A DNA stretch of 64,000 bases from Patescibacteria group bacterium (GCA_035692185.1 DASSIE010000023.1:8259-72258); one strand, 5' to 3'; counted from the first letter of the stretch, positions 4,137-27,398 are shown. The notes: a model not told the origin generated them from the letters alone. Translations and numbers: made by a program.

Positions 4137-5630
4137 TTACACTTTCTCCGTAACCTTATACTCAATATACTTTCCAAGCATTAAGCGTGTGTGCGCATCC
4201 AGGCCGGGGAGGGCCGAAAAGAAAAATCCAGCAATAGGCATTAAAATAAATTCAAAAGGGGTTAAAATCGCTCTCCACAAAGGGAACGACTCTGGCCTTT
4301 TTGGTTTATGGATATTATCAATCACAATCATGACAACTAAAAATACTAATGATATGGTTAAGATAAATGAGGAAAGTTTAGGAACTGTGTAGCCTAAGGC
4401 AGTTCTGCCAAATGCAGGATTTAAAAATGTTGGGATGGTAAGCCCGATTGTAATTAAAAACCAATTAACTGGCCACAAAAAATGGGACCAAATAACACGA
4501 AACAAACGAGTAGTTTTATCCCAAAAAGGAACATCACGAGCTAGGAAATAACTTTTAATTATCCAAGGATCGTCAGATACACCCCAAGCCCATCTTTGAA
4601 TTTGTTGATATTGATTTTGTAAGGTTTTCCAAAAAGACGGCGACTGAGCAGCATCAGCCAATAGTGGGAGATAAATGGGTTCGACTTCAATTCCACCACC
4701 GACTTTGTAAAACGCTTTAAAAAATATTCCCCAATCCTCAGGAATTTTATCTGGATCCCAGTAATCAACTTGGTGCAATAATTTAAAAGACAAAGAATAA
4801 TTTTGGGCGTTAATAAGTCGATCTCGGCGGGGGAGCTGGGAAAGGTTCCAAATGGTCATAAAAGTATTTAAGACCCGGGTTATGGCTGGAATTTCCCAAA
4901 TATTGTTGTAAAACATAACAGCCGGTTGCCAGAACATTTTGTACCTGTTTGGATTGTCTAAAAATTTGAAAGCCAGGTTTGCAAAGTGTTTTGGATGATA
5001 TTTATGGTCTGCATCACAAGATGTAACTGTAAAGTAATCTAAATTTAATTTGTTTTTTGAGATGTAATTTTTCTCTACCCAAATTGCGGCAAACCTCTCA
5101 TTAGATGCTTTCCCAGCCACCTCACCAACTTTTAATTCATGGACTGTCATGTAAAATTTTTCGAATAAATTGCCGTATTTTTCTTTTAAATATTTAAATT
5201 TAGAGTTTCTGTCCTCATCTGGTTCTTTAAACTCCATAGCAAGTACCGGAATAATTTGTTTTGTAGGAAAATCTTGGTCTGCAATAGACTTGATCGTTCG
5301 CTCCAGAATATGGATAGGCTCTTTATATGTTGGAATAATTACAACATGTATTAATTTTTCCCAGTCAGGAAAACCCTTAACGTCAGCCATCCAGTTATAA
5401 ACTTTTGCAGCTTGAATGCGGGTGTGGGAAATTATTGAACTTATTGCAATTTGAAAGGATTGATAAAACCAATAAATATTAAAGAAAAGTATAAAGTAGG
5501 CAACTACCACTGGAATTACAAATATTCCCCAGTAGGGGAATAGAATTAAGTTCCAAGAAACAAACCCTGGCAAAATCTCAAGAGCCCGGAGGATACCTTT
5601 GTCGTGTTTGATAATAAAAGCTCTAAACAT
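4137..5630 (-). CDS. Membrane-embedded processive GT2 glycosyltransferase (cellulose/chitin-synthase-like)
   Basis: TM helices at both ends. Has VVIIPTYKEP, a TSCDADH DxD motif and a QQIQRWAWG (QxxRW) processivity motif. Confidence 0.55.
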   Translation of the reverse strand: MFRAFIIKHDKGILRALEILPGFVSWNLILFPYWGIFVIPVVVAYFILFFNIYWFYQSFQIAISSIISHTRIQAAKVYNWMADVKGFPDWEKLIHVVIIPTYKEPIHILERTIKSIADQDFPTKQIIPVLAMEFKEPDEDRNSKFKYLKEKYGNLFEKFYMTVHELKVGEVAGKASNERFAAIWVEKNYISKNKLNLDYFTVTSCDADHKYHPKHFANLAFKFLDNPNRYKMFWQPAVMFYNNIWEIPAITRVLNTFMTIWNLSQLPRRDRLINAQNYSLSFKLLHQVDYWDPDKIPEDWGIFFKAFYKVGGGIEVEPIYLPLLADAAQSPSFWKTLQNQYQQIQRWAWGVSDDPWIIKSYFLARDVPFWDKTTRLFRVIWSHFLWPVNWFLITIGLTIPTFLNPAFGRTALGYTVPKLSSFILTISLVFLVVMIVIDNIHKPKRPESFPLWRAILTPFEFILMPIAGFFFSALPGLDAHTRLMLGKYIEYKVTEKV

Positions 5631-5634
5631 GGCG

Positions 5635-7077
5635 TTATTTTACTAACCGAGGAAAAAGTGGCTCGGCTGATTTTATTTTTGGTCCTTTAAATTGGTCATC
5701 AATTTTCTGAGCTGTCTCGGGGATAAAAGGATAGAGATTTAATGAAATGGCGCGAATTGTATCAACTGCTTTTTTAAGAAAGTCGTTTAACTCATCGCCC
5801 GTTAGTTTCCAGGGTTCGATTTTATTTATATCTTGATCCAGTTTTGTTATGTAACTCTCAAAAATATATCTAGTAGCTTCATCGAATCTATATATATCTA
5901 AAAACTTCGTAACATTCTCGTCCAATTTCCACTCTGTTCCTGGAATGACAGGAAATTCAAAACCTGAATTCTCACAGAGTTTAGCTACTCGGGAGACCAG
6001 ATTTCCCAGCCCGTTGGCAAGATCGCCGTTATAAACATCTTTTAATTTTTCTTCAGAAAAGTCACCGTCTGTGAATGGAGAAAACTTAGCAAGTAAGTAA
6101 TAACGCAATCCATCTACTCCATATTTTTCTATCATCTCAACCGGATCGATAACGTTTCCTAATGTTTTACTCATCTTTTGACCGTTAACAGTGAAATAAC
6201 CATGAACAAACAAGGCCTTTGGAAGTTTAAGCCCTGCAGACAAAAGAAAAGAAGGCCAGTAAATTGCATGGAAACGACTAATTCCTTTTCCAATTACATG
6301 TAAGTCTGCTGGCCACCATTTATTGTATTTTTCGTCGTCCCAGCCAAAACCAATTCCTGATTGATAAATGTTTAAAGCATCAAACCAAACATACATTCTT
6401 TGCTTGTCGTCTCCGGGAACCGGGACGCCCCAGTTTTTAGCACGCTCATTACTTCTACTGATACTGATATCTTGAAGTGGTTCTTTTAAGAAAGATAGCA
6501 TTTCATTCTTTCTCTCTTCGGGGCTGATTTTTAGTTTGTCTGATTTAATTAACTCGATCAGTTGTTTTTGATACTTTGAAAGTTTGAAGAAATAATTTTC
6601 CTCGGAAACATTTTCCAGTTTTTTACCTGGGTGTTCAAAACATTCTCCGTTCTCGTTTAGTTCGGAAGGAAGGTAGAACTGCTCACAACCTACACAGTAA
6701 AGTCCTTCATAGGTTTTTTTGTAGATATCACCGGCTTTATCGCAAAGTTCCCAAAGTTTTTGAGAGGAAGGAAAATGAGTTTTTTGATCACTCCCTTTTT
6801 GCCAAACTGTAAAATCACAATTCAGTTTTTTTGTTAGTTCCAGAAAAAGATTATTGTTTTTATCTACAAATCTTTGGACATCGTCCCCTGCCTTTTCTGC
6901 CGCCTGGACATTTTTAAGTGCATTTTCGTCTCCACCCGATAAAGAAAGTACGTCTTCGCCTAACAGTTTGTGATACCTGGCAATTGCATCAGTCTGCACA
7001 AGCTCAAGTGCGTGGCCAATATGAGGAGCTGCGTTAACGTAAGGAATAGCCGCGGTTATGTAATATTTCTTGGTCAT
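5635..7077 (-). CDS. metG: Methionyl-tRNA synthetase (short form without C-terminal tRNA-binding domain)
   Basis: AIPYVNAAPHIGHALE (HIGH motif), KMSKTLGN (KMSKS motif), and a CxxC...CxxC zinc knuckle (CVGCEQF...CFEHPG). Confidence 0.9.
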   Translation of the reverse strand: MTKKYYITAAIPYVNAAPHIGHALELVQTDAIARYHKLLGEDVLSLSGGDENALKNVQAAEKAGDDVQRFVDKNNNLFLELTKKLNCDFTVWQKGSDQKTHFPSSQKLWELCDKAGDIYKKTYEGLYCVGCEQFYLPSELNENGECFEHPGKKLENVSEENYFFKLSKYQKQLIELIKSDKLKISPEERKNEMLSFLKEPLQDISISRSNERAKNWGVPVPGDDKQRMYVWFDALNIYQSGIGFGWDDEKYNKWWPADLHVIGKGISRFHAIYWPSFLLSAGLKLPKALFVHGYFTVNGQKMSKTLGNVIDPVEMIEKYGVDGLRYYLLAKFSPFTDGDFSEEKLKDVYNGDLANGLGNLVSRVAKLCENSGFEFPVIPGTEWKLDENVTKFLDIYRFDEATRYIFESYITKLDQDINKIEPWKLTGDELNDFLKKAVDTIRAISLNLYPFIPETAQKIDDQFKGPKIKSAEPLFPRLVK

Positions 7078-7116
7078 ATGTCATATTGTACAACCTGGAG
7101 TAGGTTTGAAGCTAGT

Positions 7117-12414: not shown

Positions 12415-12702
12415 ATGTCTGACATTCTTGATAATAATGAAACCAATTTCGACGGTATTGAGATAACACTTCAAAAGGACACTTTCGTTTTTAAGAAAAC
12501 AAAAGAAAATCTTGCTTTACGAGACGGTGTAATAGAAAAGGGAGAGACTATTATTGTCGGCGATTACACTGACATAGTCAGATTGTATTATGATCACGAT
12601 AAGCATGAATTTACTCCTTGGATGGATAACCCAGATGTAATTCATGGAGATGAAACCACAGTGAGATATATAAGGACTCAAGACCTTCCTCAGGATTTTT
12701 AA
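12415..12702 (+). CDS. Hypothetical protein
   Basis: 95 aa ORF with an ATG start and no recognisable motif. Confidence 0.25.
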   Translation: MSDILDNNETNFDGIEITLQKDTFVFKKTKENLALRDGVIEKGETIIVGDYTDIVRLYYDHDKHEFTPWMDNPDVIHGDETTVRYIRTQDLPQDF

Positions 12703-13577
12703 ACAGGTAGCCGGAATTTGGTATAACAGCCAGGGTACAGGATCTCAGTGCCCCCAAAAGAGCGCTTGAAGTGGGTGAAGCCGAGCCAGCTTTTGATGGG
12801 GAAGCGAGAGTCGTAGATTCCTTCGAAATCGAAAATCCTACAACTCTGCCTTTTGGCCCATAGTATTCCGTAATAGAGGAGAGTGTACTGGGATAGGGAA
12901 GTGCGACCTTCTGAATTTGTAAATCCGTACCAATAATAACTGATATAGTTTGATCCGCCGTGTAAAGATGTCGTGAAAAGCGCTCCACCTATAATTCTGC
13001 CAAATATATTGTGCGACGCAAGGAATATGGACTTATTACCTGGGAAACTTTTGCGTAGATTAATTAATTGCCCCTCCCCTGGCACATAACGCGAAAAGTT
13101 AACAGAATTTTTCCATGCATCTCGCCAGATTTTGATTTTATTTGGAGAAGAATATTCTTTTATGTTCTCGGCATTCATGATTTGACCACTTCCCTGCCGG
13201 ATTGCCCTTCTCGTATCTTTTTTAAAGTGGCTTAGTATTGTTTCCTTGCTTTGAGTAAGGTCAATCTGAAGAGTTATTGTGGGTAAATACGGGCTTTTTG
13301 AGAGATTGAATCCATGTGATAGCATTAATATATGATTCTTTTCGGTGATGGTACTGGAAGCTAAGTTAGGCTCGATAATAATCTGAAAAACGCGGTATTT
13401 TCGGGCTAATTTATCAATTACTCCGAAATCAATTGTATCTGATCTTTGAAGCTTCAAAATACTTCCAACGATCGGCAATTTTTTAATGAAGTAATTTGTA
13501 TTATCAACCCTTTCTACGATCCAGCCCTCTGATGACAGATAGTTAGCATATTGAATTGTTTGTCTGATATCTGTCAT
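12699..13577 (-). CDS. FemAB-family aminoacyl-tRNA-dependent peptidoglycan bridge peptidyltransferase paralog
   Basis: C-terminal GGSNYISYYWYG...YGILWAKRQSCRIFDFEGI matches the FemX/FemAB acyltransferase core. ATG start. Confidence 0.5.
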   Translation of the reverse strand: MTDIRQTIQYANYLSSEGWIVERVDNTNYFIKKLPIVGSILKLQRSDTIDFGVIDKLARKYRVFQIIIEPNLASSTITEKNHILMLSHGFNLSKSPYLPTITLQIDLTQSKETILSHFKKDTRRAIRQGSGQIMNAENIKEYSSPNKIKIWRDAWKNSVNFSRYVPGEGQLINLRKSFPGNKSIFLASHNIFGRIIGGALFTTSLHGGSNYISYYWYGFTNSEGRTSLSQYTLLYYGILWAKRQSCRIFDFEGIYDSRFPIKSWLGFTHFKRSFGGTEILYPGCYTKFRLPV

Positions 13578-13689
13578 AAATTCGAAATTACAAATAACAA
13601 ATTCGAAACAATACCAAAATTCTAATGTTTAAAATTTAAAACTTTTATATTTTGAATTTGTTTAGGATTTCGAGTTTGGTACTTCGAAT
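13578..13689 (+). repeat. MITE-like AT-rich intergenic repeat, copy 1 (TTCGAA-type ends)
   Basis: The 5' end AAATTCGAAATT...CGAAACAATA and internal TTGAATTTGTTTAGGATTT are shared with the copy at 51371. The 3' end TTCGAATTTAGA is the inverted complement of the 5' end. Confidence 0.45.
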
Positions 13690-14697
13690 TTAGAAACGAT
13701 GTTTAGATAATCCGAACCTTGCAACAATTTTTAAGGTTGGCCATCTTATCCATTCAAGAATTCTATAAACTACGTAAATTGGTTTATTAATTACCAAATC
13801 CCAAGTCCCCAAGAATTCAATTACTTTGGGACTGTAACCTTCTTTGAATTTTGTAAAACCCTTTCCGGTCTCTCTCCCCCACAGATCAAAGGTTTTGAGT
13901 CCCATTTTTTTGCCAAACTTAATTGCCTCCCACATCATTAAATTATTTGCCATGACATTTTTGTGCTCTTCCGTGGAGGCACCATACGGATAGTACAGGA
14001 AATCTTTCCATGCAAATAGTATCCAAGTGGTGATTACTTGCCCTTCCGAATCCTTTGGCGAAGGAGGGTTGAACCTTGCTACTAAAAGGTGTGCGATTCC
14101 GGCTTTTTTAAGAATCTCCCACATTAATTTATGGTATTTTCTGGTGTGAGCGTAAAAACCTTGACGATTTACGGTTTCGCTTGTTAACTCAAGATATTTG
14201 CTAAATGCCTTGTCGGAATTATCCTCTTTTATTTTTACCCCGTTTCTTTCTGCTACTCGAATGTTATAACGTGTTTTACTTGAAAAACTTTTAAGTAGAT
14301 TCTCCTCCGATAGGGTTAAATCAATCCAAAAAGTAGTTGGGGTAAAAAGCGTTTTACCCCCTGTTGCTCCATTTTGTTTTAGTAATTTTATTAGTTTGGA
14401 TTTAATTGGAAATTGGAAATTGGAAATTGGAAATTCCCAGCCAAAATTAGGTTCTAATTTGATGAAAACAAGGTTGTTCTTTTTACCAATAATTTTCAGT
14501 TCGTCTAACATTGGCTGGGTAGGGGTTGGGCCCTTTTCAAAGATACCAATTTTATATTTAGTTCCTGGAATTTTATGAGCAGTTATAATTCCGTATTTAG
14601 TCTCAATTACCTCGTTTCCCCACTCGCGCCTAAACTCAGCCCATGCCGAAGTTTGAAGTGGATGTGTAGCAATTTTATCTAAGTTGTTTATATTCAT
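13690..14697 (-). CDS. FemAB-family (FemX-like) peptidoglycan interpeptide bridge-forming enzyme
   Basis: MNINNLDKIATHPLQTSAWAEF...GIFEKGP resembles the FemX N-terminus. Choosing the internal ATG at 14697 gives a 335 aa product; the track start at 14766 is TTG. Confidence 0.6.
   Translation of the reverse strand: MNINNLDKIATHPLQTSAWAEFRREWGNEVIETKYGIITAHKIPGTKYKIGIFEKGPTPTQPMLDELKIIGKKNNLVFIKLEPNFGWEFPISNFQFPIKSKLIKLLKQNGATGGKTLFTPTTFWIDLTLSEENLLKSFSSKTRYNIRVAERNGVKIKEDNSDKAFSKYLELTSETVNRQGFYAHTRKYHKLMWEILKKAGIAHLLVARFNPPSPKDSEGQVITTWILFAWKDFLYYPYGASTEEHKNVMANNLMMWEAIKFGKKMGLKTFDLWGRETGKGFTKFKEGYSPKVIEFLGTWDLVINKPIYVVYRILEWIRWPTLKIVARFGLSKHRF
14404..14431 (+). repeat. Heptanucleotide tandem repeat (AATTGGA) x4 inside the FemX-like CDS
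   Basis: aattgga aattgga aattgga aattgga, followed by aatt. On the coding strand it encodes NFQFPISNFQFPI. Confidence 0.6.
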
Positions 14698-14753
14698 AAC
14701 CCAATTATACATTGAATTTGAGTATTTACGTTTTGGGCTGTAAAGTATGGCCA

Positions 14754-15605
14754 ATGGAAAGACCAATCACATTTACGACAGAAATGCTCCAATCTGCGGC
14801 CAAAGGAAAACTTCTAAAGTTCTGGAAACTGAACTCACCCGATAGGCCAAGAAAATTTCCATGGAAACCAGTAGAAATATTACCGCAAAAAGATCCTGAG
14901 CAAATGAGTAGAGTAATAGAAATTATCGGCCCGTCGGGTGCCGGCAAAACGGAAGCGGTTAACTTTTTGGGACATAAATTTAGTCAAAATTTGAATATTA
15001 TTATCGCTCCCGAACTTGTGGTATATGACGGGGAAGGAAATGTCGAAGATTGGGGAAAAGACCATAAACTAAAGGGCTTAATGTTGGGAGAGTTTGGAAT
15101 TAAACACCAAATGCTGATTTGGGACAATATTAAATTATTGTCTCATATGTACCATGTTGCAGAATTAATTAAAAACAGAATGCAAAAACGGTTAATTATT
15201 GAAAGAGGTGCTAATGACGCCATATCTACACAACCCTTCACTCAACCCGAGCATTATAGTATTCGGTATGATCCGATATACGAACGAGATTTTTTAACTC
15301 ACACGTTCCAGTCAATTGCTTTAGCTGAGGACGTAGACGCGGTTATTCTATTTGGAACCAATTGGAAGACAACCAGGAAAAGGAGAGTTGATAGCGGTGA
15401 AAAACCAGAAGGGAATTTGATTAATAGGAAAAATTGGCCGGAAATAATGTCCGGCTATGAATGGTGGTTGGGTTCATTTTACCCAATTTTCAGAAAGCGA
15501 AACGGTATGGGTTTACTGATAGTTGATGGTAGAGACGATCTAAACGCCAACAATCAAAAAATTCTGGAATACTGTCAAAAGGTTTTTGTAATGCAGGGCA
15601 GTTAA
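14754..15605 (+). CDS. P-loop deoxynucleoside/nucleotide kinase-like protein
   Basis: IIGPSGAGKTEAVNFL Walker A, IIERGANDAIS (ERS-like motif), TTRKRRVDSGE arginine-rich LID-like motif. The track start is TTG at 14712; an ATG lies at 14754. Confidence 0.4.
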   Translation: MERPITFTTEMLQSAAKGKLLKFWKLNSPDRPRKFPWKPVEILPQKDPEQMSRVIEIIGPSGAGKTEAVNFLGHKFSQNLNIIIAPELVVYDGEGNVEDWGKDHKLKGLMLGEFGIKHQMLIWDNIKLLSHMYHVAELIKNRMQKRLIIERGANDAISTQPFTQPEHYSIRYDPIYERDFLTHTFQSIALAEDVDAVILFGTNWKTTRKRRVDSGEKPEGNLINRKNWPEIMSGYEWWLGSFYPIFRKRNGMGLLIVDGRDDLNANNQKILEYCQKVFVMQGS

Positions 15606-17563: not shown

Positions 17564-18532
17564 ATGACTCTTAAGAAAATTGGCTTGGTATTGGTAGGAA
17601 TAGTTATAGTATTTATCGCAATTTTATTTGTTTTTTTTAGGCCCCAAATAAGCCTTGCCAAAAATTTTACATTCCCAGACATTTCAAAGATAAGTAGCTT
17701 TGAGGGAAGAACAAACATTTTAATATTGGGTAAAGCTGGTAAGGATCATGCGGGTGGAGATTTAACCGATACCATGATATTGGTTTCTTTATCTATAAAT
17801 TCCCCAAATATTGCTATGGTTTCCCTCCCACGAGACCTTTGGATTGCCCAAATTCGAGCAAAAATTAATAGTTCGTATCATTATGGTGGACTTAGTCTTG
17901 CCAAATCAAATACAGAGCTAGTGTTAGGGATTCCTGTGCATTACGGACTTGTTTTAGATTTTTCAGGGTTTAAAGATATTGTGGATGTATTAGGTGGAAT
18001 CAGTGTTAATGTTGAAAATACTTTCACAGATAATTTGTATCCAATTGCAGGACGCGAAAATGATTTGTGCGACGGTGACATTTTATTTAAATGCCGCTAC
18101 GAAAGCATCACTTTTACGTCTGGTCTCCAGACAATGGACGGAGCGACTGCCTTAGAGTTTGTTCGTTCAAGACATGCGGAAGGCACTGAGGGAACAGATA
18201 TCGCCCGTGAAGCAAGGCAGCAAAAAATAATAGGGGCAATTGAAAATAAAATTATGGACCCCAAGGTTTTCTTAAATTTTAAAAAAGACCTTGCGGTGTG
18301 GAAAGTAGTTATGGCATCAATTGAAACCGATATAAGTAGCGATGGTGGAGCAATACTTGCAAGAAAAGTTTTTGATAGTATGAAGACGATTAATAAATAT
18401 TTAATTCCAGATGAGCTGTTAGTTAATCCAAAGCCTTTGGCGCTATATGACAAACAATATGTATTCATTCCCAAACTTGGAAATGGAAAGTGGAGCGATG
18501 TTCATAAGTGGGTGAATGAAATATTGAAGTAG
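17564..18532 (+). CDS. LytR-CpsA-Psr (LCP) family cell-wall glycopolymer ligase
   Basis: N-terminal TM, then NILILGKAGKDHAGGDLTDTMILVSL...MVSLPRDLW, which is the LCP core. Confidence 0.75.
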   Translation: MTLKKIGLVLVGIVIVFIAILFVFFRPQISLAKNFTFPDISKISSFEGRTNILILGKAGKDHAGGDLTDTMILVSLSINSPNIAMVSLPRDLWIAQIRAKINSSYHYGGLSLAKSNTELVLGIPVHYGLVLDFSGFKDIVDVLGGISVNVENTFTDNLYPIAGRENDLCDGDILFKCRYESITFTSGLQTMDGATALEFVRSRHAEGTEGTDIAREARQQKIIGAIENKIMDPKVFLNFKKDLAVWKVVMASIETDISSDGGAILARKVFDSMKTINKYLIPDELLVNPKPLALYDKQYVFIPKLGNGKWSDVHKWVNEILK

Positions 18533-18535
18533 ACC

Positions 18536-19621
18536 TCAAAAGGCCCACTGCCCCCGAGTAAAGAGTGTTGCTAAAGAAATAAGTAGTCCAATGGAAACAA
18601 ATCTCCAAATTAATTTAAAACTAGCATTTCTTTCGGCTAGTGCAATTAAAACAAAAAATGGCGGAATGGAAAGAATGTATCTCGGAGTACTTAAGATAAA
18701 ACTGGTTGAAGAAAATAAAATTACACTTAATAAGTAATATATTGCCCAAGATTTCCTTAAAAATTTAAATACATATGGAATTAAAATCCAAGAAAAAATA
18801 ACTGTAATTCCTTCTGCCCAACCAACCATTATTCCAAAACTGTTTAAACTTCCAGAAAATGCAATTCTCCAAGTGTCTGTGATACTGGCTAAGGGGGAAA
18901 CAAAACGTTTTTGCCAATGATTTAGTAGAATGTTTTGAAATTCAAAAGCATTTCCGTATATCAAGTGATTTAGATATAAATATGCAAAAACTGCAACTAC
19001 AGATGGAAAAACAATAATTGGTAAAGATTTCCAACTTTTGTTTTTACTCATTAGCCATTCAATTAAAATTGCTGGCAGTAAAAGTATCCCGAATGGTCTG
19101 GTGATAGCACCCAACGCAGTTAATAGTCCTGCAACTATCCAATTGTTTTTTCTTGCTGTGTAAAAAGAAGTTGCGAACAAAAATAAGAATAAAGATTCGG
19201 TATAAGGTGCATTAAAAAAGTATGAGGTGGGAAAAATAGCCATTGCGACAATCGTCCAAGTGGCAATTTTTTCAGAGTAATCAAGCCTGACAAGTTTGTA
19301 AAAGAAATAGCTACCCAAAACATATAAAACCACAGACGTCATTATTCCCACAATGACTGGATTAAAAGAAAAAAGTAAGGTTTTAATTATCAATGGATAC
19401 AGAGGGAAAAATACTATAAAATTGGCTTCATCGCCAATATTTGTATACCAGTGTTGGGCTAGGTAGATATAATGTGGGGCGTCCCACCTGTTCCAGGCCG
19501 ATATTGTAAAATCAAAAAAATTTTGAGAATGATTTTCAGGGTAAAGAAGGGTGATGAGTAGCCAGGGAATAACCAAAATTAGGAAACGCGAGATGATTAC
19601 AAAAATTAAAAGCTTTTTCAT
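18536..19621 (-). CDS. Polytopic membrane glycosyltransferase-like protein (GT-C / DUF2029 / PIG-V-like)
   Basis: About 9 TM helices. Conserved WDAPHYIYLAQHWY loop. The track start is TTG at 19741; internal ATGs at 19663 and 19621 are alternatives. Confidence 0.4.
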   Translation of the reverse strand: MKKLLIFVIISRFLILVIPWLLITLLYPENHSQNFFDFTISAWNRWDAPHYIYLAQHWYTNIGDEANFIVFFPLYPLIIKTLLFSFNPVIVGIMTSVVLYVLGSYFFYKLVRLDYSEKIATWTIVAMAIFPTSYFFNAPYTESLFLFLFATSFYTARKNNWIVAGLLTALGAITRPFGILLLPAILIEWLMSKNKSWKSLPIIVFPSVVAVFAYLYLNHLIYGNAFEFQNILLNHWQKRFVSPLASITDTWRIAFSGSLNSFGIMVGWAEGITVIFSWILIPYVFKFLRKSWAIYYLLSVILFSSTSFILSTPRYILSIPPFFVLIALAERNASFKLIWRFVSIGLLISLATLFTRGQWAF

Positions 19622-19637
19622 TTCTAATATTAGTATT

Positions 19638-22055
19638 ATGACAGCTATATTTATAGTTTTCATAATACGTTTTTTACTCTCCAACCTCCCCAGCTTTGGT
19701 TTTGATATGGGAACTTGGTTTGGTTGGGCGAACAGGCTCAATTCACTTGGCCTTTCTAAGTTTTATTCTGATACTGATTGGACGCAATACACGCCAGGAT
19801 ATATGTATTGGCTTTGGACGATTGGCAAATTGGGTTGGACAAATGAATTTGCAATTAAAATCCCGGTTTTACTTGCCGACCTTGGAGTCGGGGTTTTAAT
19901 ATGGTCATTAATTCGAAAAGTAAATTTAAAACTTGCTTACTTATCTTTCTTTTTATATACGTTAAATCCTGTTGTTATTTTTGATGGTAGTATTTGGGGA
20001 CAAATAGACGGCTTACTTACCTTATTTCTATTTCTGTCTGCCTACTACTTGATAGAGAAAAAGAATTTTGTTTTATCAGTTTTATTTTGGTCTTTTGCTT
20101 TTCTTATTAAACCACAATCAATTGCGGTTTTGCCCGCACTATTAATGGCAGTTTTAATTAAAAAATTCAAATTAAAAGAAATTGTTATAGCAGGAATAGT
20201 GGGGACTATCACAATACTTATTTTGTCCTGGCCATTTTTTGTAGATGATCCAGTTTTAGGGTTACCACGCTTAGTTATTAAAATGACACAGTATTATACC
20301 TACACCTCAGTAAACGCTTTTAATATTTGGTCATGGGTTGGAATGTGGAAAAGCGATACCCAATTATTCCTCGGAATAAGTCTTGCTAGTTGGGGAGCAA
20401 TTTTGCTTGGATCCTCAGTAGTTTTAACCTTGTTTTCGTTCAGAAAAAAATTAGATCAAAAATCAAACTATTATCTTTTGTTTGCTATTCTTAGTCTTTG
20501 TTTTTTCCTCTTTCCAACTAAAGTTCATGAAAGATATCTTTTTCCTTTTTTTGCATTCCTTTTGACTTCAGCAGGACTCTCTAAATCCATAAATCTTATT
20601 GGTATTTATATTGTGACTTCAATTGCGTCTTTCTTAAATCTCTATTATCCATATTCCTATTACTATCCGACACAACTGCGATCTGATTTTTTATATAATC
20701 TAAGCGAAAATCTGACAAAGTTGGTAGGCTTTGTTTTTCTTATGGCGTATTTTGCACTTTTGTTTTGGGAAAAATTGCCAAAAATTAATTTTCCTAACTT
20801 TTTCTGGCAGAGCCAGATCCTGCTTCGCAGGACAAATACAGGATTTCCAAAACTTTCTTTATCTAAAAAAACGACAAAGATAATTATTGGTTTAATTTTA
20901 ATTTTTGCATTTGCAACAAGAGTCTTTGAGCTAGGTTCTCCCCCAAAAGAATATTTTGATGAGGTTTATCATGCCTTTACTGCCCGATCAATACTAAACG
21001 GCGACATTAAGGCGTGGGAGTGGTGGAATACCCCACCTGAAGGGTTTGCATATGAATGGACACATCCACCGATCGCAAAACTTGGAATGGTATTGGGGAT
21101 GAAAATATTTGGCGAAAACTCTTTTGGTTGGAGAATTCCTGGTGCACTTTTAGGTGTGGGGAGCGTTTTTATGGTTTACTTGATTGCTAAAAGATTATTT
21201 GATGATGAGGCGATTGGTCTTATCGCTGCGGGAGTGTTTAGTTTGGATGGTCTTCCTTTGGTTTTAAGTAGAATCGGAATGAATGATTCATATTTATTAT
21301 TTTTTATACTTCTTTCTATCTATTTATTTTTAAAAGAAAAGAATTTTGCCTCAGCAATTGTTTTTGGTTTAGCACTTGCTTCCAAATGGAGCGCTATTTG
21401 GGCAATTCCAATTCTTGGAGTGATTTGGCTAAGGCGTTTAATCAAAAATAAATCATTCAAAATTTCTACTCTTTGGTTTTTAGTACTTCCTTTTTTGGTC
21501 TATTTTCTTAGTTATTTACCAATGTTTTTATCAAACCACTCGTTATCTATTTGGTGGGAGATGCAGAAGCAAATGTGGTGGTACCACACAGGCCTACGTG
21601 CTACTCACCCTTACAGTTCTTCATGGTGGAGTTGGCCTTTTCTTCTTCGCCCAATTTACCTTTACACAAGTGATGAGGTTGGCGGATGGGTAGCTAGAAT
21701 TTATTCGATGGGTAATCCGTTGGTGTTTTGGTTTGGCTTAACGTCAATAATTATGAGTTTTATTTACGCTCGCGTTGAGCGAAATAAAAATTTGGGTTTT
21801 GTAGTTTTTTCCTATTTAATATTTTTTGTACCCTGGGCCCTCTCGCCTAGAATAATGTTTTTGTATCACTACCTTCCATCCATTCCATTCATGTGTATTG
21901 CAATTGCTTATGTTTTGCGCCGTAATCCTAAATTGATATTGGGCTATCTGCTTATTTGTTTATTGGTATTTATTTATTTCTATCCACATTGGGCCGGGCT
22001 TCAAGTCCCACTTTGGCTAGACAAAAGTTACTATTGGATTGGAAGTTGGAGATAA
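19638..22055 (+). CDS. Large two-module membrane glycosyltransferase: N-terminal GT-C/DUF2029-like module plus C-terminal PMT/ArnT-family (GT39-like) module
   Basis: More than 20 TM segments. The second module begins ELGSPPKEYFDEVYHAFTARSIL (DE motif of PMT/GT39). The track start is GTG at 19551, which overlaps the divergent gene; ATGs at 19593 and 19638 are alternatives. Confidence 0.5.
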   Translation: MTAIFIVFIIRFLLSNLPSFGFDMGTWFGWANRLNSLGLSKFYSDTDWTQYTPGYMYWLWTIGKLGWTNEFAIKIPVLLADLGVGVLIWSLIRKVNLKLAYLSFFLYTLNPVVIFDGSIWGQIDGLLTLFLFLSAYYLIEKKNFVLSVLFWSFAFLIKPQSIAVLPALLMAVLIKKFKLKEIVIAGIVGTITILILSWPFFVDDPVLGLPRLVIKMTQYYTYTSVNAFNIWSWVGMWKSDTQLFLGISLASWGAILLGSSVVLTLFSFRKKLDQKSNYYLLFAILSLCFFLFPTKVHERYLFPFFAFLLTSAGLSKSINLIGIYIVTSIASFLNLYYPYSYYYPTQLRSDFLYNLSENLTKLVGFVFLMAYFALLFWEKLPKINFPNFFWQSQILLRRTNTGFPKLSLSKKTTKIIIGLILIFAFATRVFELGSPPKEYFDEVYHAFTARSILNGDIKAWEWWNTPPEGFAYEWTHPPIAKLGMVLGMKIFGENSFGWRIPGALLGVGSVFMVYLIAKRLFDDEAIGLIAAGVFSLDGLPLVLSRIGMNDSYLLFFILLSIYLFLKEKNFASAIVFGLALASKWSAIWAIPILGVIWLRRLIKNKSFKISTLWFLVLPFLVYFLSYLPMFLSNHSLSIWWEMQKQMWWYHTGLRATHPYSSSWWSWPFLLRPIYLYTSDEVGGWVARIYSMGNPLVFWFGLTSIIMSFIYARVERNKNLGFVVFSYLIFFVPWALSPRIMFLYHYLPSIPFMCIAIAYVLRRNPKLILGYLLICLLVFIYFYPHWAGLQVPLWLDKSYYWIGSWR

Positions 22056-22070
22056 TAGTTGGTGTACTGA

Positions 22071-22358
22071 TTATGCTGGTTTCAAATAAAAATCCCCTTT
22101 TGCTAGTAAAAAAATAAGTAGCCCCAAAGCAATAATTACTATAAAAAAATAACCAATAGACCAAGCGCCACCTTGTGGGAAAAAAAGATCGAAAGGGTAA
22201 GAAGAAAAAATAATAGTTTTTAACTTTTTCAGAGAATTTGTAGTTACATAAAAAACAAAACAAAATATCGCAATTAATATAACCCCTGCGATTATGTTTA
22301 CATAATTTGTTTTTAAAAATTGAATGACTGGGGAGATTAGTAAAGATAATTTATTCAT
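22071..22358 (-). CDS. Small membrane protein (last gene of the surface operon)
   Basis: Hydrophobic 95-97 aa ORF. First ATG at 22358. Confidence 0.25.
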   Translation of the reverse strand: MNKLSLLISPVIQFLKTNYVNIIAGVILIAIFCFVFYVTTNSLKKLKTIIFSSYPFDLFFPQGGAWSIGYFFIVIIALGLLIFLLAKGDFYLKPA

Positions 22359-22371
22359 AATCAACTACTGC

Positions 22372-23031
22372 TTAGAGAGCAATTAGAAGCGAAGTTAATA
22401 TTACAAATATTCCCAGTGTGGCACCCACGATTGTTGGCCAAGTGGTACCTGATTGTGGCAAGGTTGGGGCTGGAGTCCCGGTTGGTCCAGGAGTGCCTGA
22501 ACAAGCACAGTTTGCGCTTGTGGTACAAGATGGGTTTCTACAGAAACCCTGTGAACAAATTAATCCATTTGCACAATTACTATTACTTCCGCAAGTTCCA
22601 TTACATGAGTTTGGAGTTGGTACCGGTGTTGCAGTAGGCGTTGCTGTTGCACAAGTACAATCTGCCTCGGTTAAGCATTGTGTATTCCTGCAGTTTCCAG
22701 TTGTTGCACCAGTTGGAATGTTACAAGTTAATCCAGATGAACACTGAGCGCTTGTTGTACAGACATCATTACATTGTGGAACTGGAGTAGCCGTTGGTGT
22801 TGGGCTTGGCGACGCCGTAGCCACAAGTGAAAAAGTTAGGACACAAGAAGATGGGGGAACTGTTGGCGTTACCTCTTGTGCCTTTGGAATACTGCTAGGC
22901 ACATTAGGGGCCACTGGTTGGCTCCTTAATTGGTAAAGTCTAATGGCCGTAAAAATAGCAACTCCCGCTAGCACTAGGGTTGCTAAAATTATTAAAAATG
23001 TTCCTACTTTACCTTTAAAAAAATTTTTCAT
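22372..23031 (-). CDS. Cysteine-rich, Thr/Pro-rich surface protein with N-terminal signal-anchor and C-terminal LPQSG + hydrophobic tail (possible sortase substrate)
   Basis: N-terminal TM, PT-rich linker, then about 20 Cys in ~100 aa (CNDVCTTSAQCSSGLTCN...CRNPSCTTSANCACSG), then TLPQSGTTWPTIVGATLGIFVILTSLLIAL. Confidence 0.4.
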   Translation of the reverse strand: MKNFFKGKVGTFLIILATLVLAGVAIFTAIRLYQLRSQPVAPNVPSSIPKAQEVTPTVPPSSCVLTFSLVATASPSPTPTATPVPQCNDVCTTSAQCSSGLTCNIPTGATTGNCRNTQCLTEADCTCATATPTATPVPTPNSCNGTCGSNSNCANGLICSQGFCRNPSCTTSANCACSGTPGPTGTPAPTLPQSGTTWPTIVGATLGIFVILTSLLIAL

Positions 23032-23074
23032 GCTATTTTGGCTATCTTTAAGTTTACTTTAGACCGCTCCAAAT

Positions 23075-24439
23075 TTATTTATAACCCAAAGTTACGTGAT
23101 GAATTTGGGCTGATATATTAAACGTTGTTACTGCAGCTGGAATTGTATAAGCCTGACAAAAATCTTGTGTAGTTGGTCTTTTGGTTGTTGTTTCAGTTTG
23201 GGCGACTCCATTAATTGTAAATTTAGCCTTATCAAAGGCAGATCCATCGCTAGCAGATCCTACAACACAGAAGTTAACAGCTGTAGTTGGAGCTAGAGCC
23301 GAAAGTTGCGCCGCGGTAAGCGCTGTCCAAGTAGCAGAATAGGCTTTTATGTTCTGACACTGGGCAGTGAGTGTTGTTGTTTCTTCCCCACCTGAAGTAC
23401 AAGGCACAACTGTTGTTTTAAATCCTTGGCATGCAGTGTCGGTTTGAATAGTTCCACAGAAATTTGTTGGACGATTGTTTAAGTTTTGCTGACAACCACC
23501 TGAGGTATCTTGTGACCCAACACAATAATATGTGCTTACGGTTCCACAAGCAGCCCCCCCTGCACCCCCGGAAGTTTGGGAATTGGAAAAAACTGCGCAA
23601 AGCCCATCAGTACCGCCACACTGCGTACTAAATCCTCTATCAAAACAAACCTTACCTTTAGTTGAAGTAGCGCATGGACATTCCGCGGATTGAAATCCTG
23701 ACGGGCATGCATCTTTTGAGCCAACTTCTACGTAATTTGCACCTCTCACAGGTTCAAAATTACATTCCTGTCGCAACATGTCATCGCAAGTTTTGTCCAC
23801 CGGGAGAATACAAAAACCACCGCAACCACTTGGTGTGACACCACACTGTTTTGCTCCCGAGGCACCACAGCTCACAATAGTGGTAGTAGCGTTTCCGTTG
23901 TCATCTTGAGCACGTTCGCTACATCTGTTTGTTCCCTCATTGTAACCTGATGGACAACCACATCCCCCATTAGAAAGACAGGTACCATTGATTGTCGCCC
24001 CTTGATCCGATTTACAAGCACATGCGCCTATTCCAACAGCTTTCTCACTAATATTCTGATCTTGTTGAGTTAAAATTACTCCTCCTGCAACTCCACCAAT
24101 AAGCAAGAAAAGTCCTAATATTGTTGCAATAATTTTGCCGCCGCCAAACTTTTTCTTTGGAGTTGCCGAAACCATAGTTGGGAATGAATCTTTTGGTAAA
24201 TTTTGGGGAGCTGCTGAACCCGCCTTTGCTGAAGCTTCGGCTGGCACGCCAGGTTGCTCTGTATTCTGGAAATCTGGTGGGAGTGGGGGTAGATCTGTAT
24301 GGTGTAAAAAAGAAGGAACCTCAGCTGGCTGTTGAACTGTTGGACTGTTAGGAATCAGCGGAACAACTGGACTGCTGGGGGCAGCTACAGGTGGTGTAGT
24401 TGTATTTTGATTTGGATCTGTTTGATTTGGGTCAGGCAT
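23075..24439 (-). CDS. Type II membrane protein with Pro-rich N-terminal region and a large cysteine/glycine-rich ectodomain
   Basis: Pro-rich N-terminus, a TM helix (IIATILGLFLLIGGVAGGVIL), then about 40 Cys spread over ~330 aa (ACACKSD...CGCPSG...CGGFC...). Confidence 0.4.
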   Translation of the reverse strand: MPDPNQTDPNQNTTTPPVAAPSSPVVPLIPNSPTVQQPAEVPSFLHHTDLPPLPPDFQNTEQPGVPAEASAKAGSAAPQNLPKDSFPTMVSATPKKKFGGGKIIATILGLFLLIGGVAGGVILTQQDQNISEKAVGIGACACKSDQGATINGTCLSNGGCGCPSGYNEGTNRCSERAQDDNGNATTTIVSCGASGAKQCGVTPSGCGGFCILPVDKTCDDMLRQECNFEPVRGANYVEVGSKDACPSGFQSAECPCATSTKGKVCFDRGFSTQCGGTDGLCAVFSNSQTSGGAGGAACGTVSTYYCVGSQDTSGGCQQNLNNRPTNFCGTIQTDTACQGFKTTVVPCTSGGEETTTLTAQCQNIKAYSATWTALTAAQLSALAPTTAVNFCVVGSASDGSAFDKAKFTINGVAQTETTTKRPTTQDFCQAYTIPAAVTTFNISAQIHHVTLGYK

Positions 24440-24440
24440 T

Positions 24441-25781
24441 TTAATCTTCAGCTATTTTTAAGATAGCAAACGAGAACAGTAATACTGCTATTCCAATAAT
24501 AGATAGTAGGATAGTTCCCGTCAAGGATCCAGTAACAGGAACAGGTTGAGAGGTAGCAGCTGGGGTAGGGTTTGGTGTACTTGTTGGTTTTATAGTAGCC
24601 GAACCCGAAGATGTTGGTGTTGCAATTATAGAGGGCGTTGATGTAGCAGAAGAAGAAGCTTCAAAGGCTGGTAATTCACTAGCTTGGACCACAAAACTTC
24701 TGGTTAAACTTCGTGTAATTCCAGTTGCGTCAACCCAAGAAATATTAATTGTATGAGCGCCGGGGGCTAGGTTAGCAGGAACGTTCCAATTCCATGAACC
24801 GTTTTTAGGAATTTCAATAACATCAGTTATTGGAGTTTCTGAGTTAACAGTAATTGTAATTGTTTCCCCACCCGGACCTTTGCCAAAAAACTGTGGCTGA
24901 TCTGTAGTTATAACCTCTCCTTCTTTTAAACTCTCCAAAATAACACTAGAAGAAGGGGTGGCGGTACCACCCTCAACATTAAATTTTGATGATGCAGTAG
25001 CGTCTTCTGGTAAATTTAAACTGGCCTCCGGAATTTGTCCCTCCGCGTTTATTGGAAGACTTCTAAAATCGTAAACCTGCCCCAATATTATTGTAGGAAC
25101 TGGATGGGCTGATTGTGGAAATACTTTAGCGGTTGATACGCCGTCAACCCCCCCCACAACTGAAATCTCCAGCAAAGTTTGAGCTGGATCGATCTGGGCA
25201 TAGCTAAGTAAGTCCGTGGTTCTGGTGTTGCCTATCTGGAAAACGTAATTACCATTGTCTGAAGTTAATGTCGACAGAAGGTACCCATTTATAGTCATAT
25301 AAACTAATGCTCTTTTAGCGGGAAGACCTGAAGCATTAATTACTGCACCCGAAACTGTATTTGTATTTTGATTTACATTTAATGTAGGACCAGTTGAGAC
25401 TTCCCAAGCAATACCTTTATTGTCGTAATTTGTCCCGTCTGAATTTATCTTGTAGAAGAATTTTTTACCAGGGGTAAGGCCTGTTAGTGTAATGCTATGT
25501 GTTACAAATTTTTGATCTGCTTCAGTTTCCTTTTCAATTTTTGGTAAGCTGTTTGCACTCTCTCCCCAACTAATAAAATTGAGAGATTCTTTATCGGTAG
25601 TCCAAGAAATAGTTGCTGAATTATCACTTATATTACTCACTCTTATATCAGTTGGTGCGGTTTTAACGTCAGCCCCAATTCTAAAAACCTGATTCATATT
25701 TAAGAAGAAGACTCCAGCAAAAATTCCTACTACGAGCATTACTATTCCTATAATTGTCGGAATCCTATTTGTTTTTTTCAT
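24441..25781 (-). CDS. Cell-surface protein with N-terminal TM, fibronectin type III-like domain and C-terminal TM anchor
   Basis: DIRVSNISDNSATISWTT...FFYKINSDGTNYD is Fn3/PAP-N-like. The C-terminus is a Thr/Pro/Ser-rich stalk ...VPVTGSLTGTILLSIIGIAVLLF. Confidence 0.4.
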   Translation of the reverse strand: MKKTNRIPTIIGIVMLVVGIFAGVFFLNMNQVFRIGADVKTAPTDIRVSNISDNSATISWTTDKESLNFISWGESANSLPKIEKETEADQKFVTHSITLTGLTPGKKFFYKINSDGTNYDNKGIAWEVSTGPTLNVNQNTNTVSGAVINASGLPAKRALVYMTINGYLLSTLTSDNGNYVFQIGNTRTTDLLSYAQIDPAQTLLEISVVGGVDGVSTAKVFPQSAHPVPTIILGQVYDFRSLPINAEGQIPEASLNLPEDATASSKFNVEGGTATPSSSVILESLKEGEVITTDQPQFFGKGPGGETITITVNSETPITDVIEIPKNGSWNWNVPANLAPGAHTINISWVDATGITRSLTRSFVVQASELPAFEASSSATSTPSIIATPTSSGSATIKPTSTPNPTPAATSQPVPVTGSLTGTILLSIIGIAVLLFSFAILKIAED

Positions 25782-26123
25782 TTATTGTGTGGTACCTGAT
25801 TCAGATGCGGGCGAGGAAACAGGAATTGCAGATGGGCTAGCAACAGCAGTTGCAGTTGGTATAGGAATAATAGTAGGGATAGGTGTTGCAACAACAAAGT
25901 TTGAACTAGGAATTTGTGAGTCATCAAGAAAAATCTTTGTATTAATTTGGTTTAAAGTAGCAGTATCTAGGCTAGGAGTTAAAGGTTCTGAAATTTCAGG
26001 TGGCACAACAGGCGCTGGTTTTGTAGCTATTGCTCTATAAACATTAAAACTAACCCACATGACTGCGGTCAGAAGAGTTAAAACAAGAACTGAAATAAAA
26101 TTTGGTATTTTTGTTTTTTGCAT
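25782..26123 (-). CDS. Small membrane-anchored Pro/Thr-rich protein (PilP-position gene)
   Basis: N-terminal TM followed by a PT-rich segment. Coupled with no gap to its neighbours. Confidence 0.3.
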   Translation of the reverse strand: MQKTKIPNFISVLVLTLLTAVMWVSFNVYRAIATKPAPVVPPEISEPLTPSLDTATLNQINTKIFLDDSQIPSSNFVVATPIPTIIPIPTATAVASPSAIPVSSPASESGTTQ

Positions 26124-26139
26124 ATTTATAAATTCTTAA

Positions 26140-26793
26140 TCATTGTCCCAAAAATGGTACCCGACCAGACAACGTAGTAACAATTACAAGACCTTTTTCA
26201 GTAGAGGACGCTGTTATTCCAACAACGTCCATTTTTACAGGAATCTTAATATTTTCAAGGTCTTTTAGAAACAACATTAAGCTTGGATAATCACCCTTTG
26301 CGCTAATTGAAATTGGCATTTCTTTTGCGTTTCCAGGAAGCGGTTTAACATCCCCAGAACTTTTCTTAACAGGAGAAGTTCCTACAAGGGTGACTTGTCC
26401 AATTGAAATTCCTAAAATAGATACATTATCTTTTGCAGCGATCCCCGCCACTTGTTTAGAAATAACGTCTGGTTTAGCAGTAGTTCCAACTGCAGAGTCA
26501 ACTCCAACGATAAGATTTTGATTTTGAGAAAAAACCGTACTCGCGGTTTTTAAGTCATTGATTTTTTGGTCAAGCCCCGCGACTGTTGTTTGTTTTTCCC
26601 GAATCTCTTTTAAAAGACTAATAATGGTTAAGGCGGTTGGCTTTAGGGCAAAAAGTAAAAATATTATTATTGTTGAAAGAGATAGTATAACTTCTAAAAA
26701 CACGCGAAGGTCTGCCCTTTTTTTGTAAAGAGACATTATATTTAGGAAAAAATCCCTGTATCTTAAATATTGTCCTCTCCAGCCTAGTGCCAT
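26140..26793 (-). CDS. PilO-like type IV pilus assembly protein
   Basis: N-terminal TM, coiled-coil (LLKEIREKQTTVAGLDQKINDLK), and C-terminal domain. Located immediately downstream of the PilN-like gene. Confidence 0.45.
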   Translation of the reverse strand: MALGWRGQYLRYRDFFLNIMSLYKKRADLRVFLEVILSLSTIIIFLLFALKPTALTIISLLKEIREKQTTVAGLDQKINDLKTASTVFSQNQNLIVGVDSAVGTTAKPDVISKQVAGIAAKDNVSILGISIGQVTLVGTSPVKKSSGDVKPLPGNAKEMPISISAKGDYPSLMLFLKDLENIKIPVKMDVVGITASSTEKGLVIVTTLSGRVPFLGQ

Positions 26794-26794
26794 G

Positions 26795-27338
26795 TTAAAA
26801 AATAATGTTTACAGTAAATATTGATAGTGACGGATTGTTTTCAGACGAATTAACCTGAGATAAATTAACCTCTTTAAATTGGGGAACAGATTTTAAGTTA
26901 GAAATAAATTGTGCGATTGCAATTTCTGATCCAGCAGTTCCTTTAACTTGCCCTAAACTGTCCTGAACAGAAACTGTGGAAAGCACGATACCACTTGGTA
27001 ATTTGGATGATATTGCATCAATCTTTTCTGTAGATTTAGTGCCTTGGGTAATAAGTTTTACAATATTAAGTTTTGATTGAAGACCTCTGAATTGTTTTTC
27101 AAAATCGGCCTGATTTGAAATCTGGGCGGTTCTATTTTTTATCGTATCGTTTAGGTCTGAATTCTGCGCATCGAGCCAAAAACGGGAAAGAAAGGCGGCC
27201 ATTACAATCATTTCAGTAATGATAACGATAATTCTAAAAGTTCCCATTGCCCACTTCAAAATCCGGCCAACTACCGATGTGTCGAATTCCTCTTGAGGCA
27301 GAAGATTTATATTGCTATTTTTGGGCATGATACAACTC
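26795..27338 (-). CDS. PilN-like type IV pilus assembly protein
   Basis: From the ATG at 27338 the protein starts MPKNSNINLLPQEE, with the INLLP signature of PilN. A TM helix and coiled-coil follow. Confidence 0.5.
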
Positions 27339-27398
27339 ACATTCAATATAACATATGAAACATCTCGTCGGAAGGCTTAAGGAGAATGGGGTTTAAGG

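Follow-up and report, generated by a model that had tools for sequence, protein, structure and literature searches.

A conserved Microgenomates operon encodes PilN and PilO homologues together with sortase-type and cysteine-rich envelope proteins

A 64,000-nucleotide stretch of DNA from a Patescibacteria group bacterium (GCA_035692185.1, DASSIE010000023.1:8259-72258; hereafter the window, with positions counted from its first letter) carries, at 22071-27346 on the minus strand, a compact cluster of seven genes that we call G1 to G7 in transcription order. Our best reading is that this is a Microgenomates-specific envelope operon built around a PilN/PilO pair, with lineage-specific extracytoplasmic partners. 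The cluster is conserved in more than 100 loci of the Microgenomates, which are ultra-small uncultured bacteria; the loci come from Woesebacteria, Pacebacteria and unnamed clades, and in them PilN-PilO-G3-G4 is an invariant core, to which G5-G6 are frequently added as a pair and G7 in some loci only. The PilN and PilO families are known; their operon with undescribed surface proteins appears to be new, and so does the parity rule that governs the cysteines of two of those proteins.

Results

The first two genes encode PilN and PilO homologues

A preliminary description of the window, made from the DNA alone, had proposed seven minus-strand genes separated by 0-35 nt. All seven open reading frames (ORFs) are indeed present at those positions; the gaps between them measure 1, 16, 0, 1, 43 and 7 nt, so that the range is 0-43. 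The same description had called the first gene PilN-like, with an INLLP signature, and the second PilO-like. G1 (26795..27328, minus strand; 177 residues from its ATG) matches the Pfam family PilN (PF05137) at 42.8 bits, well above the cut-off of 22.8 (E=5.7e-11), and a profile of 38 G1 orthologues, searched against all PDB sequences, retrieved Myxococcus xanthus PilN (3jc8_N, 1.4e-6). The ORF list starts G1 at a TTG at 27346, but the ATG at 27328 (MPKNSNINLLP...) is most likely the true start, as it is in the orthologues. From this ATG, G1 is predicted to have a cytoplasmic N-terminus, MPKNSNINLLPQEEF, followed by a transmembrane segment (TM) at residues 32-58 and the PilN ectodomain.

INLLP occupies residues 7-11 (27296-27310) within this N-terminus. 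The motif, I-(N/E)-(L/F)-(L/I)-P, is kept across all clades as either INLLP or IEF(I/L)P. In studied systems, including the Thermus PilM-PilN structure, a motif of this type is the site at which PilN binds PilM. G1 retains such a PilM-binding-type motif, and binding itself is predicted.

G2 (26140..26793, minus strand; 217 residues) begins 1 nt after G1, and the median gap between the two genes is 2 nt across 37 loci. It is a bitopic membrane protein with a TM at residues 27-62 and a coiled coil. On its own it falls below the cut-off of Pfam PilO (PF04350), with 14.2 bits against 22 (E=0.05). A profile of 38 G2 orthologues, however, retrieved M. xanthus PilO (3jc8_O, 1.4e-6) and, weakly, Pseudomonas aeruginosa PilO, and the Pacebacteria orthologues, which the G2 hidden Markov model (HMM) finds with E values of 5e-33 and 2e-37, have an unmarked match to Pfam PilO. 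G2 is therefore recognizable as PilO at the level of the orthologue profile only. Judged by these matches, G1 and G2 are homologues of PilN and PilO. To our knowledge, PF05137 and PF04350 have been recorded only in type IV filament systems.

The cluster is conserved across Microgenomates lineages

We scanned one genome per species for G5 and obtained 34 loci, from organisms named Woesebacteria, Microgenomates or Microgenomatus. HMM annotation gave the same arrangement in all of these, namely hrcA-murJ, then rpsT-G1-G2-G3-G4-G5-G6-(G7), then PMT...LCP-uvrD, and five long contigs have an identical gene order. Among 37 Woesebacteria-type loci, G1-G4 are present in every one and G7 was detected in 17.

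More distant loci came from a search with G4 in a library of representatives at 50% identity, which gave 3511 matches at E<=1e-3 and 546 at E<=1e-30; 67 metagenome loci were taken for a distant clade. G1-G2-G3 precede G4 in 36 of the 37 distant loci with enough upstream sequence. The neighbor upstream of the unit is rpsT in 20 distant loci, UvrD in 3 and a same-strand MurJ in 3, and the downstream genes vary. G5 and G6 follow G4 in 17 of the 26 distant loci that have room downstream. Two Pacebacteria contigs (1.08 Mb and 281 kb) read MurJ-PilN-PilO-G3-G4-G5-G6. Median gaps within the unit range from -4 to 7 nt. The proposed seven-gene unit thus holds in part: G1-G4 are deeply conserved, G5 and G6 are usual but not constant, and G7 can be absent. 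The synteny of the cysteine-rich genes with pilN/pilO, on which the preliminary description had made its proposal depend, holds across several lineages of Microgenomates, in about 100 loci.

Sortase-type sorting signals at the C-termini of G4 and G6

Within their otherwise low-complexity tails, G4 and G6 are best conserved at the C-terminus. G6 proteins end in LP-x-(S/V/A)-G-T-x-W-P-T and a stretch of about 20 hydrophobic residues; in G4 proteins the end is (V/T/L)P-x-(T/S)-G-x-L-T-P-T, then a TM and W-K. The G4 of several species carries the exact G6-type motif (LPQSG, LPESG or LPKSG), and the common form [ILVT]P-x-[STAV]-G is kept in 37 G4 and 35 G6 orthologues. About 100 distant G4 homologues, at 30%-45% identity, keep [ILV]P-x-[STA]-G and a TM, and in Pacebacteria the orthologues of G6 have a canonical ELPQTG, then a TM, at their end. 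Two unrelated families of one operon therefore share an LPXTG-type signal. On these motifs, G4 and G6 are shown to end in sortase-type sorting signals, at which cleavage is predicted.

A sortase-domain gene lies at 53702-54379 (plus strand; Pfam, 1.6e-26), 27 kb from the operon, and is the only one in the window. Against the class C model it scores 61.6 bits (cut-off 160). The operon itself contains no sortase, and we found no adjacent class C sortase and no conserved pilin-motif lysine. Sortase is reported to be near-ubiquitous in Microgenomates (PMC6744442).

Cysteines of G5 and G6 change in pairs

Cysteine makes up about 8% of G5 and of G6. Its share is 0.4% in 27 further proteins from the window (60 of 15011 residues), and the remaining five operon proteins have 0-1 each. 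This enrichment exceeds chance by far. The counts vary greatly between orthologues and are nearly always odd. Full-length G5 orthologues contain 5 to 45 cysteines, an odd number in 134 of 135, and G6 orthologues contain 1 to 25, odd in all 35. In distant clades the count is odd in 10 of 12 G5 and 20 of 21 G6 proteins. It is odd again in Pacebacteria, where G5-like proteins have 69 or 21 cysteines and G6-like proteins 35 or 27.

Since parity stays odd despite a varying count, the cysteines of G5 and G6 are gained and lost in pairs. Pairwise change is a prediction of selection on intramolecular disulfides, and the possibility, raised in the preliminary description, that the cysteine-rich ORFs are unconserved low-complexity artefacts is thereby excluded; they are conserved families with odd parity. 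The pattern argues for real disulfides plus one unpaired cysteine in each of G5 and G6. In G6 the odd cysteine is that of S-C-x-L-x-F-T-L, the sole cysteine remaining in four species; in G5, C361 is invariant, and C391, C428, C142 and C245 are also conserved. Seventeen distant loci have both G5 and G6, one has G5 alone and none has G6 alone. Parity and co-occurrence are most simply read as a possible single disulfide that joins a G5 molecule to a G6 molecule; the alternatives are homodimers or a free thiol.

Features of G3 to G7

By hydropathy, G1, G2, G3 and G5 each have a single N-terminal TM, G4 and G6 have a hydrophobic segment at each terminus, and G7 has two or three such segments. G3, G5, G6 and G7 match no curated family.

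G3 (25782..26123, minus strand; 113 residues) is a small bitopic membrane protein that always lies between G2 and G4. An alignment of 38 orthologues defines its conserved core as the N-terminal TM and P-L-x-P-x-L-D-x-x-T-I-x-x-I-E; a juxtamembrane segment of about 40 residues is conserved. The preliminary description had it as a Pro/Thr-rich membrane protein; the membrane topology stands, and the Pro/Thr tail is optional in the family. No Pfam or NCBIfam family matches G3. We considered it as a prepilin or as PilP and rejected both: a prepilin motif and a beta-domain are lacking, and the only family matches are noise.

G4 (24441..25781, minus strand; 446 residues) is an Ig/Fn3-like surface protein, as judged from Pfam, an AlphaFold2 (AF2) model, Foldseek and its conserved tail. 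Its Pfam matches to fn3/Pur_ac_phosph_N and Big_13 exceed their cut-offs. The AF2 model (mean predicted local distance difference test score, pLDDT, 84) has an N-terminal helix, a C-terminal helix, two disordered linkers and beta-sandwich domains at residues 44-130, 142-240 and 289-365; these correspond to the Fn3 domain (25392-25652), a second beta-sandwich (25062-25358) and the Big_13 Ig-like domain (24687-24917), all on the minus strand. A Ser/Thr/Pro linker then leads to the sorting motif VPVTG (24528-24542, minus strand), which precedes the TM and a short charged tail. Foldseek searches with the model retrieved tandem FnIII arrays and adhesin stalks. Earlier described as a TM-Fn3-TM stalk, G4 does contain Fn3; it has three Ig-like domains, and its C-terminus is a sortase-type signal rather than a plain second anchor. 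We rejected the idea that G4 is a sortase-polymerized pilin: the pilin-motif lysine, in the 'IPKNG' of G4, is not conserved in the orthologues.

G5 (23075..24439, minus strand; 454 residues), identical to NCBI protein VFI61_03230 (Patescibacteria), was characterized by homologue alignment, AF2 modeling and cysteine counts. It is a type II membrane protein, as had been proposed, with 27 cysteines, all in the ectodomain (residues 140-428), rather than about 40. Its Pro-rich cytoplasmic N-terminus contains the conserved motifs MPDPNQ and DLPPLPPDFQ (the latter at 24266-24295), and PKKKFGGGKIIATILG and the TM at 24113-24160 are very conserved. The cysteine-rich region (23399-24022) is hypervariable and cannot be aligned between orthologues. 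It is followed by a C-terminal beta-sandwich of about 95 residues (23078-23371) that is 60%-75% identical across the family and modeled with pLDDT >90 (residues 357-454). No specific fold could be assigned to this domain: a Foldseek search of the PDB returned nothing beyond generic matches, of Ig-like, CARDB and Fn3 type, all at E>0.1. There are at least 237 G5 homologues, and all named sources are Patescibacteria apart from evident mis-binning. A known cysteine-rich family was sought for G5, and Stig1, matched by only 2 of 30 homologues, was rejected; NCBIfam has nothing for G5 or G6. The Pacebacteria counterpart in locus L109 (13684-16239) has 851 residues and 69 cysteines and lacks the Pro-rich N-terminus, which is present in Woesebacteria G5 and in the L110 counterpart. 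The cytoplasmic tail is therefore not universal.

G6 (22372..23031, minus strand; 219 residues), delimited by its motifs, orthologues and cysteine counts, has a conserved N-terminal TM followed by RLYQLRxQPVAPNVPSS, of which VAPNVPSS lies at 22891-22914. The conserved single cysteine, in SCVLTFSL (22825-22848), comes next, then two 8-Cys modules (22651-22773 and 22501-22605) and the sorting motif LPQSG (22447-22461), followed by TTWPT and the hydrophobic tail; all are on the minus strand. The tail is as first described, and the number of cysteines is 17, not about 20. Across the family, G6 has Thr/Pro linkers, zero to three 8-Cys modules and the conserved tail, and four species have a G6 with a single cysteine, so that cysteine-richness is not a conserved property of G6. 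The conserved cysteine was considered as a lipobox and rejected, as it sits about 25 residues past the hydrophobic segment.

G7 (22071..22364, minus strand; 97 residues) is a small two-TM membrane protein, an optional member recognized through its orthologues. It has a conserved loop, YPFD-x-F-x-P...WS-x-x-YF, and no match in Pfam or NCBIfam.

Neighboring genes and the search for other pilus components

The preliminary description had noted no pilin, PilM or secretin gene next to the cluster. Pfam scans of the whole window agree: among about 40 other proteins we found no pilin, PilM, GspE-type ATPase, PilC, PilD or secretin. Neither a GspE Walker A motif nor a prepilin N-terminus was found in the 1.14 Mb of window and loci. 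In the 6-10 kb of contig examined beyond each end of the window lie UbiA, PEGA and M23 genes on the left and the ribosomal protein operon on the right. Elsewhere in the candidate phyla radiation (CPR), Saccharibacteria have pilM-pilN-pilO inside pilus loci (PMC11623550), and CPR-wide the pilus families are reported to co-localize in numerous genomes, PilQ being absent (PMC6744442). A complete Microgenomates genome has a single pilus locus with PilA, minor pilins, PilD, PilB, PilT, PilC and PilM, and no PilN or PilO is listed (PMC7143001). This suggests that the G1/G2 pair may be the PilN/PilO absent from that published locus.

The window has a G+C content of 35%-41%. The gene for ribosomal protein S20, rpsT, lies 52-70 nt upstream of the operon, and promoter and terminator scans gave nothing above shuffled controls. 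The window yielded neither a tRNA gene nor an Rfam match at gathering score, although it holds rpsT and the dnaK, nusA-infB, pnp and rpoB-rpoC regions.

Convergent to the operon, at 17564-22055, are an LCP (LytR_cpsA_psr) gene and two PMT-family GT-C glycosyltransferase genes (18536-19741, minus strand, and 19551-22055, plus strand). The longest-ORF calls for the latter two overlap by 190 nt, and the plus-strand gene therefore probably starts further downstream. The PMT/LCP adjacency is kept in Woesebacteria-type loci and not in Pacebacteria. The PMT-family enzymes offer a weak lead to possible O-glycosylation of the Thr/Pro linkers in G3-G6; as functional partners we rejected them, the adjacency not extending to Pacebacteria. 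Two adjacent FemAB-family genes (12699-14766, minus strand; one strong match, one weak) lie beside UvrD and near MurJ. This pair indicates a peptidoglycan with interpeptide bridges, the kind to which sortase usually links proteins.

The window sortase gene is preceded, at 4 nt, by a gene for a 738-residue membrane protein (51481-53697, plus strand). In this protein a cytoplasmic N-domain of about 370 residues is joined by a TM to an ectodomain that matches Baseplate_J weakly. It lacks a C-terminal sorting signal, and neither Pfam nor the PDB has a match for the N-domain, a profile search included. Only 51 homologues were found, none of them annotated, and nearly all those with a source name are Patescibacteria. 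By eye the N-domain looked actin-like, and we considered the protein as a hidden PilM; with no Pfam match at E<=10 and no PDB match, either alone or as a 16-sequence profile, this idea is unsupported.

Some loci depart from the common arrangement. In six Woesebacteria loci, G4 is separated from G5 by about 2 kb of inserted DNA. In five of them (L009, at 5108-7091, L011, L020, L028 and L036) it encodes a membrane-anchored protein of about 330 residues and a protein of about 220 residues with a PEP-utilizer swivel-like motif, GIIFxNGxxTSHGAIxARE; in L032 a different insert encodes an extra 343-residue protein with 20 cysteines. The metagenome loci L045 (1-2559) and L048 (3-2537) have, upstream of murJ, a second pair of G4-like and G6-like genes, which are paralogues that do not belong to the main cluster, and L090 has a G4-like gene without G1-G3 in front.

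Discussion

The anatomy and conservation of this operon are solid, while its link to pilus function and to host contact, which the preliminary description had suggested together with attachment, is something that we infer. With somewhat less than even confidence, we favor the view that it encodes a lineage-specific, wall-attached outer module of a type IV pilus machine, because of the identity of PilN and PilO, the PilM-type motif, the synteny and small gaps, the sorting tails and the cysteine parity. In such a module, the INLLP N-terminus of G1 would dock on a PilM whose gene lies away from this operon, in the main pilus locus, and the PilN/PilO ectodomains, with the small bitopic G3, would hold the Ig-like stalk G4. 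The sortase encoded in the same window would link G4 and G6 to peptidoglycan, and the membrane protein G5 would be joined to wall-bound G6 through their unpaired cysteines. The module might thereby tie the inner-membrane pilus platform to the cell wall, bracing it, and display a hypervariable disulfide-rich domain at the cell surface. It would occupy the place that PilP and PilQ have in the pilMNOPQ operons of outer-membrane bacteria, although this positional parallel to pilM-N-O-P-Q is only an analogy.

Several observations weigh against a pilus module. Across about 110 loci there is no pilin, GspE-type ATPase or PilM gene within 7-10 kb of the cluster, and what connects it to pili is homology and the N-terminal motif only. 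The whole 20 kb region is collinear in Woesebacteria, where synteny by itself is weak evidence, and some clades lack G5 and G6 beside G4 and have glycosyltransferases or PBP1a there instead. No protein of the window matches the LPXTG-anchor model TIGR01167 at E<=1, and a Pacebacteria G4-like protein scores 11.5 bits on it, below the cut-off of 15.9. G6 ends ...LLIAL, without the usual positively charged tail, and the charged tails of G4 are limited to the W-K-x-x-E type.

We therefore weighed other explanations. The pilus machine might be a Gram-positive analogue of type II secretion that pushes folded G4, the G5 ectodomain and G6 through peptidoglycan, with PilN/PilO as the docking part of the piston. 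In Clostridium perfringens, the matrix proteins BsaC and BsaA, already folded, are efficiently released only with pilins, PilB, PilC, PilD, PilM, PilN and PilO, and a sortase gene adjoins the bsa operon (bioRxiv 10.1101/2024.11.04.621531); G4-G6, which are strictly co-encoded with PilN/PilO, are folded ectoproteins with several domains and sizes of 20-50 kDa or more, up to 851 residues in Pacebacteria. However, G5 keeps an uncleaved N-terminal anchor and a conserved cytoplasmic tail, unlike a released cargo. Sortase substrates, moreover, are normally attached while tethered to the membrane, with no need for a piston, and genes for the ATPase and pseudopilins are not co-encoded. We regard export of G4-G6 as cargo as unlikely. 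We also consider it improbable that G1 and G2 have kept the PilN/PilO fold and left the pilus, forming with G3-G6 an independent envelope complex such as a membrane-to-wall tether or a surface-layer anchor, even though such a complex would account for a cluster that is never beside pilus genes and is regularly flanked by wall-synthesis genes (MurJ, LCP, PMT, FemAB and PBP1a). The pair may then link to an actin-like protein other than PilM, for example FtsA or MreB; the TM/coiled-coil region of G2 has a weak DivIC match (E=0.0056), and other CPR groups hold pilM, pilN and pilO inside their pilus loci (PMC11623550; PMC6744442). Yet the published Microgenomates locus lists PilM without PilN/PilO (PMC7143001). 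The PilM-binding-type motif is, furthermore, retained in G1, and we know both families only from type IV filament systems.

Chance adjacency is very unlikely. If pilN-pilO and the surface-protein genes were separate units, left side by side in small genomes that rearrange slowly, one might expect the collinearity of the whole hrcA-murJ/rpsT...PMT-LCP-uvrD region in Woesebacteria, the six loci with 2 kb inserted between G4 and G5, and the clades without G5/G6. But G1-G4 remain contiguous under three upstream contexts (rpsT, UvrD and MurJ) and several downstream ones, the gaps are of a few bases or are overlaps in essentially all loci, and G1-G3 precede all but one of the 37 distant G4 homologues with upstream sequence.

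Comparison with known systems helps to place the operon. G1 and G2 are homologous to PilN and PilO of the type IVa PilMNOPQ complex (P. aeruginosa, M. xanthus 3JC8 and Thermus thermophilus), and in both systems the gene for a small anchored protein comes after pilN-pilO, ahead of that for a large envelope protein with several domains; the INLLP of PilN is kept. Here, in contrast, there is no upstream pilM, G3 lacks the beta-domain of PilP, G4 is an Ig/Fn3 stalk with a sortase signal rather than a secretin, the organism has no outer membrane, and pilins and ATPases are not nearby. The monoderm type IV pili of Clostridium and Streptococcus sanguinis and those of Saccharibacteria TM7x share the monoderm envelope and a platform that needs PilM, PilN and PilO; in those systems pilM-pilN-pilO sit in pilus loci and no wall-anchored partner has been described, whereas here pilN-pilO are detached, in an operon with sortase-type and cysteine-rich proteins.

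G4 and G6 resemble the sortase-anchored LPXTG surface proteins of Actinobacteria, bacteria with an MdbA/VKOR disulfide pathway (Actinomyces oris and Corynebacterium): the N-terminus is a signal or an anchor, the domains are Ig-like or small and disulfide-bonded, linkers rich in Pro/Thr span the wall, and an [LV]PxxG motif comes before a hydrophobic tail. They differ in the variant motifs of this genome (VPVTG and LPQSG), the lack of a pilin motif and, for G6, of a charged tail. MdbA-like and VKOR families are enriched in CPR bacteria (PMC6744442). The C. perfringens Bsa system (bioRxiv 10.1101/2024.11.04.621531) is a monoderm precedent for folded surface proteins that depend on PilM, PilN and PilO, although the Bsa proteins, members of the TasA family, have genes that do not accompany pilN/pilO and show no homology that we could see to G3-G6. 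The preliminary description had held that this architecture is not a described system, and in the literature that we searched we found no account of PilN/PilO co-transcribed with sortase-type and disulfide-rich proteins.

A bolder form of the outer-module model is that G3-G6 form a sortase-anchored, Ig-domain, disulfide-locked collar that covalently couples PilN/PilO to peptidoglycan, functionally replaces PilP/PilQ and carries a hypervariable domain, possibly for recognition of a host or partner. This is doubtful as a whole; such a collar would perhaps also exist in other monoderm bacteria with analogous proteins.

CPR bacteria rely on type IV pili for epibiotic life, and the operon bears on how a type IV pilus crosses, and is braced at, a thick wall without an outer membrane; we know of no counterpart of PilP or PilQ in monoderm bacteria. 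With their parity rule, G5 and G6 illustrate cleanly how selection acts on disulfide pairing in surface proteins that are hypervariable in other respects. Overall, the operon supplies concrete candidates for the outer part that is missing from the pilus machine: it links PilN/PilO platform genes to sortase-type and disulfide-rich envelope proteins, and it is kept throughout a large lineage of uncultured bacteria.

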